Part shown: positions 1 to 1,026 of the stretch, piece by piece
Layout: each line of letters starts with the position of its first letter
How positions within the stretch are numbered: the first letter of the stretch is position 1
Origin: Escherichia coli
GTDB lineage: Bacteria; Pseudomonadota; Gammaproteobacteria; Enterobacterales; Enterobacteriaceae
Length of the DNA stretch: 1,026 nucleotides
Reading direction: 5' to 3' (one strand)
Assembly (NCBI RefSeq): GCF_003334405.1
Contig: NZ_QOWM01000050.1
Notes under the pieces: generated by a model
What the model was told of the DNA's origin: nothing
What the model saw: only the letters and a program-made list of their open reading frames with translations
Database searches by the model: none
Program-made: the position numbers and the translations under genes

Positions 1-48
1 GTTTAATACGGTATTCCTGTTCTACATGCACACCCATAACTCACCTTA

Positions 49-549
49 TCAAAATCTGTTCACTACAGCAGTCACCAGAGTTTCTAACTGTTTCGCTGTT
101 TGCTGACAAATATTAAGCGCATCATTAATTTCCTTTCTGAATTCAGGATCGTTAACAATACAAAATCTGTCACCACTAATGATATAATGAACATTGCGTC
201 CGAGTTTGTTAATTTCCGTTTTAAGTCTCCTGATTTCTTTAATCTCATCAGGATAAAGACAGACTTCATTTTTTAACAAAGACTGACGTACACGAATAGC
301 AATTTCTCTGCTCATGCTCATGCCGTGAAGGACAGCATTACGTTTAACAAGTTCTATTTCATGAGGGTAGAGATAAGTGAAAACTGGTTTTGCAGCCTCA
401 TTCTTAACAGGAATAGATACTGGCTTTGTTGGTACATCAAGAACTTTCATTTTTGCGAATACATTTACACTATCAACTCCATATGAAGCTGCATTTACTC
501 TCGCAAGTTCATATTCATCATCATTTAATCTAAAACATACATTTTTCAT
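49..549 (-). CDS. Hypothetical DNA-binding protein with tandem ribbon-helix-helix (RHH)-like repeats; 166 aa from the ATG at 547-549 (track ORF 49..624 uses an upstream TTG)
   Basis: Uninterrupted minus-strand reading frame ending in TGA at 49-51. In-frame ATG at 547-549 is preceded by GGTGA (554-558), a plausible Shine-Dalgarno. I spot-checked the track translation against the sequence (residues GMSMS at 310-324; C-terminal NRF at 52-60). The protein has repeated modules of a short hydrophobic strand followed by an acidic helix (VCFRLNDDEYELARVNAASYGVDSVNVFAKMKVL; VFTYLYPHEIELVKRNAVLHGMSMSREIAIRVRQSLL), each with a G-x-(D/S)-x-S turn typical of CopG/Arc/MetJ-type RHH domains. The gene could not be matched to a named family from memory. 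Confidence 0.6.
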   Translation of the reverse strand: MKNVCFRLNDDEYELARVNAASYGVDSVNVFAKMKVLDVPTKPVSIPVKNEAAKPVFTYLYPHEIELVKRNAVLHGMSMSREIAIRVRQSLLKNEVCLYPDEIKEIRRLKTEINKLGRNVHYIISGDRFCIVNDPEFRKEINDALNICQQTAKQLETLVTAVVNRF

Positions 550-553
550 TCTT

Positions 554-558
554 TCACC
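554..558 (-). promoter_or_regulatory. Candidate ribosome-binding site (GGTGA) for the ATG at 547-549
   Basis: Minus-strand sequence reads ...ctctatGGTGAaagaATGaaaaat...; GGTGA matches the 3' part of the AAGGAGGTGA consensus, 4 nt before the ATG. Confidence 0.35.
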
Positions 559-563
559 ATAGA

Positions 564-598
564 GCCTGCGGCAGGCACAGGCAAAAACATCGTTTTTG
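564..598. promoter_or_regulatory. Pair of inverted repeats just upstream of the RBS: GCCTGC-g-GCAGGC (564-576) and CAAAAAC-atc-GTTTTTG (582-598); candidate operator
   Basis: Both are perfect inverted repeats read directly from the sequence. The CAGGC motif occurs three times: once inverted (564-568) and twice direct (572-576, 578-582). They lie between the candidate promoter and the ATG, where RHH repressors typically bind. Confidence 0.3.
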
Positions 599-611
599 GA
601 CAATCTACTGA

Positions 612-627
612 AAATTGCATGCAATTT
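612..627. promoter_or_regulatory. 16-bp perfect palindrome AAATTGCATGCAATTT; candidate protein-binding site overlapping the candidate -10
   Basis: Positions 612-627 are exactly self-complementary across a GCATGC core. A perfect 16-mer palindrome is unlikely by chance in 1 kb (rough expectation on the order of 0.01-0.02). Confidence 0.35.
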
Positions 628-642
628 CTAGTGGATTGTCTA
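614..642 (-). promoter_or_regulatory. Candidate sigma70-like promoter for the RHH-repeat gene: -35 TAGACA (637-642), 17-bp spacer, -10 TGCAAT (614-619)
   Basis: Hexamers and spacing read on the minus strand. The -35 is a 5/6 match to TTGACA; the -10 is only a 4/6 match to TATAAT and lacks the conserved A at position 2. An alternative is -10 TATAGT (658-663) with a weak -35 TTTATA (682-687, 18-bp spacer). Neither is strong; this is a prediction only. Confidence 0.2.
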
Positions 643-777
643 TCCTGCATTGATTGTACTATATGTGGCGCTGTGCCTAGCTATAAAATCGTCGCTGCAT
701 ATGTCCAGATTTCGTTGCTGAAAGGTTCTTTCGTCTTCGACCATCTGGCAAACGTATAGCTGAAAGATTTGTGAAAG

Positions 778-801
778 AAAAAACAAGCCTGGCAGGGCTG
801 G
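778..801 (-). terminator. Possible weak terminator for the upstream minus-strand gene: short stem (AGCC/GGCT) followed by a T6 run on the minus strand
   Basis: Minus strand reads ...ccAGCCctgccaGGCTtgTTTTTTcTTTc (A-run 778-783 on the plus strand). The stem is only 4-5 bp, so this is marginal. Confidence 0.2.
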
Positions 802-806
802 GAATT

Positions 807-833
807 GTTACGGCTGAAGCCGTAACGCTTTTT
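807..833 (+). terminator. Intrinsic-terminator-like structure: 8-bp stem GTTACGGC/GCCGTAAC with TGAA loop, then GC + TTTTT
   Basis: Perfect inverted repeat 807-814/819-826 followed by a T5 run at 829-833 on the plus strand. No plus-strand gene is evident upstream, so its function is unclear. The same stem forms on the minus-strand transcript but is followed there by AAUU, not a U-run. Confidence 0.3.
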
Positions 834-860
834 AAGTCCTCGCTGCGCTGCGGGGCTTCC

Positions 861-894
861 GGCGCAAAGCGCCTCCCATGCCCTTACAGGGCAT
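861..894. repeat. Two adjacent short GC-rich stem-loops in the 3' region of the upstream gene: GGCGC-aaa-GCGCC (861-873) and ATGCCCT-tac-AGGGCAT (878-894)
   Basis: Both are perfect inverted repeats read from the sequence. They lie 16-49 nt downstream of the TAA at 910-912 on the minus strand. Neither is followed by a U-run, so they are more likely 3'-end stabilising structures or protein sites than canonical terminators. Confidence 0.3.
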
Positions 895-909
895 AAGAAA
901 CAAGGGCAA

Positions 910-1026
910 TTAAGCCCCTGCGCGATGATTGCTGACTTCTTTTTCCAGAGCCTTATTAACAAAGGCGTTCAGTGATAAATCTTCTTCCATCGCCATTTCT
1001 GCTACCCGACGATGCAGTTCTGGATC
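910..1026 (-). CDS. 3' end of a gene truncated at the window edge; C-terminal RHH-type DNA-binding domain resembling the C-terminus of HicB-family antitoxins
   Basis: Reverse complement of 913..1026 translates in frame with the window edge to DPELHRRVAEMAMEEDLSLNAFVNKALEKEVSNHRAGA, followed by TAA at 910-912. The pattern P-x-LH-x-x-(hydrophobic)-A-x-x-A-x-E-x-x-SLN-x-(F/Y/W)-(V/I) is the helix-turn-helix half of an RHH fold as I recall it from HicB-type and related antitoxins. The N-terminal part of the protein is outside the window, so the family call is tentative. It is absent from the ORF track because no start codon lies inside the window. Confidence 0.55.
   Translation of the reverse strand, partial: DPELHRRVAEMAMEEDLSLNAFVNKALEKEVSNHRAGA

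Follow-up and report, generated by a model that had tools for sequence, protein, structure and literature searches.

The GC-rich block beside an IncX plasmid transfer origin resembles a G4-type single-strand initiation signal

Introduction

Why should a strongly AT-rich gene lie next to a GC-rich flank within a single short stretch of plasmid DNA? We address this question for 1,026 nucleotides of Escherichia coli DNA (contig NZ_QOWM01000050.1; this whole stretch is called the window here and is numbered from its first nucleotide), for which an earlier note, made from the letters alone, had read the sharp step in composition as a sign that the AT-rich gene was acquired horizontally or lies at a junction between DNA of different origin. 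The window comes from an IncX (R6K-like) conjugative plasmid with an AT-rich backbone (41% GC), of which it covers the region of the transfer origin, and the gene is ddp1, also named taxA, which encodes a relaxosome accessory protein. The real cause of the GC jump is most likely a functional, structure-constrained DNA signal and not foreign DNA. The core of the GC-rich block (789–894, folding on the minus strand) is a conserved element of ~105 nt that we read as a probable G4-type, DnaG primase-dependent single-strand initiation (ssi) signal, or ‘G site’. We describe its composition, conservation, structure, strand bias, invariant CTG and positions; its primase dependence, its primer start and the process that would use the window's copy are inferred.

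Results

The window is 99.9% identical to NZ_CP070012.1 (L001), an E. coli IncX/R6K-like plasmid of ~32.6 kb, on which a plasmid position minus 2041 gives the window position, and a plasmid search with the window matches 586 records, mostly of conjugative plasmids. When the element core (~792–901) is searched alone, 1,558 plasmid records are returned, ~1,100 of them non-IncX plasmids at 80–90% identity, mainly large Klebsiella plasmids, and nothing is annotated under the core among the matches listed. Its carriers comprise IncX, IncFII(K) and IncN plasmids as well as plasmids of Erwinia, Pantoea and Hafnia. A scan of species-representative genomes gave 52 loci, 45 of which are chance matches in high-GC genomes; the seven true copies all come from Enterobacterales (Erwinia, Pantoea, Hafnia). 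Phage searches returned no match with the whole window (near mode) and chance matches only with the GC-rich block (distant mode). The block at 789–894 has a GC content of 61%, and across the family the element core stays at 59–65% GC whether its surroundings are at 42% or at 56%; since core GC is constant across surroundings, the GC-richness belongs to the element itself.

The surroundings of the element differ between plasmid types. In five IncFII-type replicons it follows repA at a distance of 530–860 bp and shares its strand, and IncN plasmids have it twice in the leading region, in each case a short way upstream of genes. In the IncN plasmid L004 the element sits within a 572-bp direct repeat (4669–5240 and 7472–8043), and a unit of ~113 bp, probably the promoter-proximal core of a CUP repeat, begins right after it; this unit has at least four copies, with or without the element, the shorter ones near 6086, 8791 and 9155. 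A gene for the DinQ-like type I toxin, dqlB, is found ~770 bp upstream of the element in both IncN plasmids (L004, 4130–4225; L010, 2130–2225) and also occurs in IncX L001 (13129–13224). Two IncX-like plasmids, L009 (3001–3116 and 4869–4987) and L011 (3001–3142 and 4689–4803), carry a RelE/ParE module and two oppositely oriented copies of the element, of which one adjoins ddp1 and the transfer origin (oriT) and the other lies upstream of leading-region genes. The idea that the block is part of the hicAB cassette next to which it lies in the window was rejected, as the element stays in the same position in these IncX-like plasmids, which have RelE/ParE in place of HicAB.

We aligned 18 copies of the element (alignment A1), and on the minus strand they share three hairpins. 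Hairpin I (806–825), GTTACGGC-TTCA-GCCGTAAC, has eight pairs that vary between GC, AU and GU and between UA and UG. Hairpin II (861–873), GGCGC-loop-GCGCC, keeps its stem and leaves its loop free to change, with one GC-to-AU compensatory change in two sequences, while hairpin III (878–894), ATGCCCT-GTA-AGGGCAT, shows a CG-to-GC compensatory change in six sequences and occurs in an ATGCCG...CGGCAT variant. Overall, 96.9% of the cells that should pair in A1 do so, against 29–45% when the partners are slid by one to three columns, and compensatory double changes occupy 14 cells, compared with 4.6 ± 2.4 in shuffled alignments, none of which (0/500) reaches the observed value. Fold z-scores of the element as DNA range from −2.3 to −3.0. 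Read on the minus strand, the alignment contains 13 G.T cells and no A.C cell, and each G.T would be an A.C mismatch on the plus strand; these 13 cells are not independent and reflect perhaps four or five events, so that the strand bias is supportive, not decisive. The element thus has several stable hairpins on one specific strand, as expected of a G4-type signal.

What lies outside the stems is conserved as well. Some 60 nt that are unpaired, or paired only weakly, are nearly invariant, namely GGGAGG, CCGGAAG, CCCCGCAGCG..GCGAGGAC and CTG, and the block CCCCGCAGCGCAGCGAGGAC (836–855, minus strand) is nearly invariant in sequence; it also has a short predicted helix, whose five pairs never vary and so neither support nor refute it. 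The trinucleotide 5'-CTG-3' (792–794, minus strand; CAG on the plus strand) is invariant in all 18 copies, although the columns that flank it vary, and ~11 nt separate it from the 8-bp hairpin I, to which it lies 3', the order of parts in a G4-type signal. E. coli DnaG initiates at 5'-CTG-3', and we regard this trinucleotide as a candidate site of primase initiation. A covariance-model scan against Rfam 15 found nothing in 781–925; the sole match at E ≤ 1 is a chance hit to a small nucleolar RNA (eukaryotic C/D-box) within ddp1 (366–445, minus strand; 22.3 bits against a gathering threshold of 49, E = 0.51). Within A1, columns 54–76 resemble columns 117–140 (CCCCGCAGCGAAGCGAGGAC and CCCCGCCCTGAAAAGCC..GGAC), which may reflect an ancient internal duplication or chance.

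The element was compared with two known priming signals. As in the complementary-strand origin of phage G4, one strand forms three GC-rich hairpins and has a CTG 3' of a hairpin, and the family consensus around the CTG, CTGCAAAGCC, is identical to the 10-mer at G4 3996–4005; in the G4 GenBank record the RNA primer of the complementary strand is annotated at 3970–3997 and the origin at 3998. When the 18 members are aligned locally to the whole of G4, nine of them score best at the primer start, though marginally, and the window's copy is not among the nine. A MAFFT alignment (A2) placed the hairpin I/start region of G4 on hairpin II and the middle of the element instead of on its 3' end, and this placement was not used.

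The second comparison is with the G site region of R1/R100. In R100, position and orientation relative to repA and oriR are those of the IncFII(K) members of the family, and both terminal blocks of the element are present. R100 contains an exact CTGGCAGGGCTGGG match (0.02 expected at up to one mismatch) in the gap downstream of repA, and the second common block is a hairpin followed by GGAAGG; both lie ~720 bp downstream of repA, with no match at the profile level. A first two-block pattern was too strict for the R100 loop length and matched L001 only. The central ~70 nt of R100 are unrelated to the element, and the window's copy differs from it in lying beside oriT and not beside a RepA-type origin. 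The primase-dependent G site of R1/R100 was reportedly mapped downstream of repA/oriR by Masai and Arai in 1989 and by Bernander and co-workers in 1992, and a 1994 study by Tanaka and co-workers reportedly described priming signals with conserved terminal domains and a dispensable middle, a structure with which the divergent, presumably dispensable middle in R100 agrees. G4-type ssi signals have reportedly been found in R6K itself (Nomura et al. 1991). In a published drawing of the minimal R1 replicon, ssiA stands next to oriR1 (PMC10989972), ssi sequences have been reported for R6K (PMC7690428), and Masai et al. 1990 is cited in PMC5714925 as a source on G4-type primase-dependent priming.

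Related sequences are also found elsewhere on L001. A 428-bp direct repeat (4882–5308 and 6958–7384, 99% identical), whose two copies precede one leading-region gene each, shows on its plus strand the R100-like architecture of a hairpin with GGAAGG ... CCCGCCCTGCTAAGCC, in the orientation opposite to that of the window's element, and the two copies are among the few other GC-rich spikes of the plasmid. IncX-like plasmids have their second, inverted copy of the window-type element in the corresponding position. Taking together the window's copy, these repeats and the inverted copies of the IncX-like plasmids, priming-signal-like elements are present on both strands around the leading region.

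We then return to the composition of the window within its replicon. The counts on which the earlier note relied are reproduced (36.7%, 43.3% and 30.0% GC for 1–60, 61–120 and 121–180), and so is the contrast between the reading frame at 49–549 (34.9%) and the stretches at 781–900 (57.5%) and 841–900 (65.0%), with 46.2% in the hicB fragment at 910–1026. The GC-rich side is the unusual one: along the 32.6-kb plasmid, a GC content of 57.5% is attained by just 2.6% of 120-bp windows and one of 65% by just 0.9% of 60-bp windows, and a step of +22.6 points in like geometry is found at 1.2% of plasmid positions. ddp1 is at the AT-rich end of an ordinary range. On a plasmid with a mean of 41.0% GC, its AT content is equalled or exceeded in 6.9% of 501-bp windows; among the 40 plasmid genes (mean 40.2% GC, sd 4.3) it ranks fifth lowest in GC (z = −1.2) and second lowest in GC at third codon positions (z = −1.7). 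In codon usage, its distance from the other plasmid genes is mid-range (rank 21 of 40). The discontinuity is therefore due to a short GC-rich block, ~789–921, and not to an anomalous reading frame. Horizontal acquisition, as proposed from composition, is not supported by this whole-replicon comparison, which finds ddp1 normal in both GC and codon usage, the very outcome that the note had named as its refutation. A search for boundaries likewise gave no tRNA in the plasmid, no annotated integrase in the vicinity and no direct repeats of note in the flanks, so that ddp1 has neither the atypical composition nor the boundaries of a horizontally acquired island. Nor is the flank DNA of another origin by virtue of its GC content, being a conserved structured element that keeps 59–65% GC in plasmids of 42–56%. 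The note had further pointed to the silencing of AT-rich islands by nucleoid proteins; ddp1 is not singled out among the plasmid genes in this respect. H-NS-family, Hha and type IA topoisomerase genes are consecutive at L001 13933–16771, a backbone-wide feature. Silencing of this kind is a general property of the IncX backbone (Sfx, an H-NS homolog; PMC11796372), in which core genes are AT-rich and inserted elements GC-richer (PMC11796372).

The element lies to the right of oriT. A copy of the long inverted repeat that contains oriT, the one proximal to taxA, occupies 561–666 (alpha/beta-type origin in R6K-like plasmids), and an inverted second copy with 94% identity adjoins the replication genes at L001 9659–9764. 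Within the repeat, an imperfect palindrome of 42 bp (599–640; arms 599–619 and 620–640, 86% complementary, with no spacer) is followed by the plus-strand motif CTATCCTGCAT (639–650), in which CTATCCTG precedes CAT and the predicted nick falls between G647 and C648. The motif resembles the MOBP nick consensus, YATCCTG/Y. With the palindrome, the nick-like motif and an adjoining relaxase operon, the region has the layout of a MOBP-type oriT, the nick itself being predicted from sequence. CTATCCTGCAT is kept in both oriT copies of L001 (the second in the 9679 region, minus strand), in the IncX4 plasmid L066, in L067, which represents a further IncX lineage, and in L009 and L011, and the likeness between the two L001 repeat copies ends ~5 nt past it. 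This arrangement, with the repeat, its inverted second copy and the adjoining taxA–taxC, fits the duplicated oriT described for R6K/IncX plasmids, where two oriTs lie in long inverted repeats, one near taxC and the other near the rep gene (PMC3402527, PMC3332091); the GC-rich block is not mentioned in these descriptions, and oriT is the context of the block and not the block itself.

Which strand is transferred can be predicted from the same features. Leading-region genes are, as a rule, templated by the transferred strand (PMC11541004), and to the right of oriT all of them are on the minus strand in the L001 annotation. With the nick-like motif on the plus strand and the leading-region genes on the opposite one, it is the plus strand that is predicted to be transferred, and the window's element, on this prediction, folds on the strand retained in the donor.

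A junction of another kind does exist inside the window. We compared L001 with L066 and with L067, and found taxC 93.7% and 99.6% identical, respectively, ddp1/taxA 70.1% and 86.4% identical in nucleotides, and the oriT repeat 84.9% and 79.2% identical, while everything from ~650 rightward (spacer, GC block and hicBA) is 97–100% identical to both, with no difference in the element core. Synonymous divergence (dS) is 0.30–1.05 for ddp1, 0.015–0.20 for taxC and 0–0.05 for hicBA. A diverged cassette (window 40–650, L001 2090–2707) is thus set between near-identical flanks, and its right breakpoint lies just beyond the nick motif, near 650. This pattern of identity and dS points to recombinational exchange of a taxA+oriT specificity cassette among IncX plasmids, of which it would be the signature. 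The proposed junction between DNA of different histories is to this extent real; it precedes the GC step by ~140 bp and is not at the step, where it had been placed. Positive selection on ddp1 was considered as well and rejected, with dN/dS at 0.25–0.40 and dS raised 5- to 20-fold over taxC. HicB and HicA have identical protein accessions in the three IncX lineages (L001 2951–3543, L066 and L067), in which the TaxA proteins are only 63–84% identical.

The remaining features of the window are those of an ordinary transfer region, in which every gene is on the minus strand in the RefSeq annotation of NZ_CP070012.1. The 5' end of taxC, encoding the MOBP relaxase/nickase, is at 1–37 (RefSeq gene 849–2078 of L001) and is followed by ddp1/taxA at 49–549. 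Its product, annotated as DNA distortion polypeptide 1, matches the NCBIfam DDP1 equivalog NF041451 over its full length (234.9 bits, cut-off 150), and Pfam gives only weak ribbon-helix-helix signals (Arc, E = 0.0025; NikA-like, E = 0.25). A weak candidate for a sigma-70-like promoter upstream of ddp1/taxA, TTTATA-18-TATAGT (658–687, minus strand; 9/12 matches), comes from a consensus scan only. The intergenic region between ddp1 and hicB measures 360 bp, and the 3' end of hicB, the HicAB antitoxin gene and first gene of the leading region, is annotated at 910–1026. A terminator-like hairpin lies over the hicB stop codon (900–921, minus strand; 8-pair stem, then TTCTTATG).

Discussion

A G4-type, primase-dependent ssi remains the reading that we favour, with moderate confidence, for 789–894. 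As a profile of the family (nhmmer) gives no significant match to R100 or G4, membership cannot be claimed from overall homology, and the claim rests on the short common blocks, the structure, the invariant CTG and the position. Several further observations, besides this absence of a profile match, weigh against it. The distance from hairpin I to the CTG is 3 nt in G4 and ~11 nt in the element; the likeness to G4 extends over 10–19 nt only and is individually marginal; and the window's own copy, CTGCCAGGC, differs from the G4 10-mer at three of 10 positions and lacks the alignment at the G4 start. The window's copy is, moreover, on the strand predicted to be retained in the donor and cannot prime the strand transferred from the adjoining oriT, and the position of the IncN element beside promoter-bearing CUP repeats suggests a possible link to gene expression.

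We propose the following mechanism for the action of such a signal. The element would be GC-rich because it acts as folded single-stranded DNA, in which three hairpins are combined with invariant unpaired blocks. Once the minus strand is exposed as a single strand, the hairpins would stay free of SSB, and DnaG primase could start a primer at the CTG, with A793 as the predicted first nucleotide. DNA polymerase III would then extend this primer rightward, away from oriT. The geometry of oriR and the element in the IncFII plasmids is the same: there, as in the window, a site of opening is followed ~140–400 bp on by the element, with the primer pointing away. On the retained strand, the window's copy might serve replacement-strand synthesis in the donor or the leading-strand start at an alpha/beta-type origin; alternatively, it may act on the strand that the second, inverted oriT would transfer. 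The plus-strand elements at ~5.0 and ~7.1 kb of L001 could serve complementary-strand synthesis in the recipient.

An alternative that we consider improbable is that the element acts as a single-stranded DNA promoter, as a regulatory part of CUP-type repeats or as a structured RNA. The Frpo/ssi class-1 elements of F and ColIb-P9 are leading-region hairpin promoters on single-stranded DNA that also prime the complementary strand (PMC7690428, PMC11541004), and new classes of such promoters are still emerging in leading regions (PMC12672017). Like them, the element belongs to leading regions, is strand-specific and would form hairpins as single-stranded DNA, and the related elements in the 428-bp repeats of L001 stand upstream of leading-region genes. 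Frpo, however, is ~330 nt long and rebuilds −35 and −10 boxes for RNA polymerase, whereas the element has ~105 nt and no −35/−10-like hexamers on either strand of 781–900; its diagnostic string does not occur among the Frpo/ssi sequences of the published list, it has nothing in common with the known class-1 sequences, and a Frpo-type promoter was rejected on these grounds. The folding strand in the window is, furthermore, not the predicted transferred strand, and the block has no match in Rfam. With the CUP repeats of IncN, whose core consists of a promoter and an ArdK site (PMC5371602), the element has in common that it occurs more than once in the leading region, ahead of operons and oriented like the genes, and it lies just upstream of the ~113-bp CUP-like unit and 48 bp upstream of leading-region open reading frames. 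Yet that unit begins only where the element has ended and is not always accompanied by it (two of at least four core copies in L004 carry the element), and in the IncFII plasmids the element follows oriR, with no gene to drive. The transcription context is inconsistent across plasmid types.

Quite improbable, in our estimate, is a role of the GC-rich block as a pair of terminators, or an insulator, for hicAB transcripts on the minus strand and rightward transcripts from the oriT region on the plus strand. Two terminator-like sites are indeed present where 0.6 would be expected, one formed by 806–827 and a T run on the plus strand and the other by 921–900 on the minus strand, past the hicB stop, and the T run 3' of hairpin I is kept in the family. 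A terminator would nevertheless have no use for ~60 nt of near-invariant sequence that is unpaired or weakly paired, and the restriction of wobble pairs to G.T favours the minus strand, when the T-run terminator would be on the plus strand. The hairpin at 900–921 lies outside the conserved element and is not kept in family members other than hicB-bearing plasmids, and the copies in IncN plasmids, like the second copies in IncX-like plasmids, are upstream and not downstream of genes. Very improbable, and largely refuted by the whole-replicon analysis, is an island-like boundary at the GC step between acquired AT-rich ddp1 DNA and resident GC-richer DNA: the step is real (top 1.2% for the plasmid) and the history of the ddp1+oriT cassette does differ from that of its flanks (dS 0.30–1.05 against 0–0.20), but ddp1 is typical of its replicon in composition and codon usage, the breakpoint is ~140 bp off the step, the GC-rich DNA belongs to a conserved functional element whose GC is equal in every host plasmid, no tRNA, integrase or flanking direct repeat appeared in the plasmid and region scans, and every IncX plasmid has ddp1 and oriT among its core transfer functions.

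Returning to the priming signal, its arrangement around oriT invites a more speculative model, which we think unlikely. The window's copy lies ~145 nt past the predicted nick, faces the way in which strand displacement runs and could be a dedicated primase entry site, either for the donor replacement strand or equally for the strand from the second oriT. With the copies of opposite orientation at ~5.0 and ~7.1 kb, it would make up a system that primes both strands and flanks the leading region. A strand-paired arrangement of elements is common to IncX plasmids (including the mcr-1-type IncX4), IncX-like plasmids and IncN plasmids, and we know of no description of such a priming architecture around oriT.

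For the plasmids themselves, composition alone would mislabel as foreign a core transfer gene of the clinically important IncX family, whose members carry mcr-1 and blaNDM. The exchange of taxA+oriT would mean that transfer-specificity modules are swapped between otherwise near-identical IncX backbones. The GC-rich block beside them is, on balance, rather to be seen as an element of a known kind, here in the form of an unannotated and very widespread plasmid family. If it is a primase entry site, it would provide an easy feature for plasmid annotation, and it would bear on how single-stranded plasmid DNA becomes duplex in replication and conjugation, a step that is currently studied alongside single-stranded DNA promoters.

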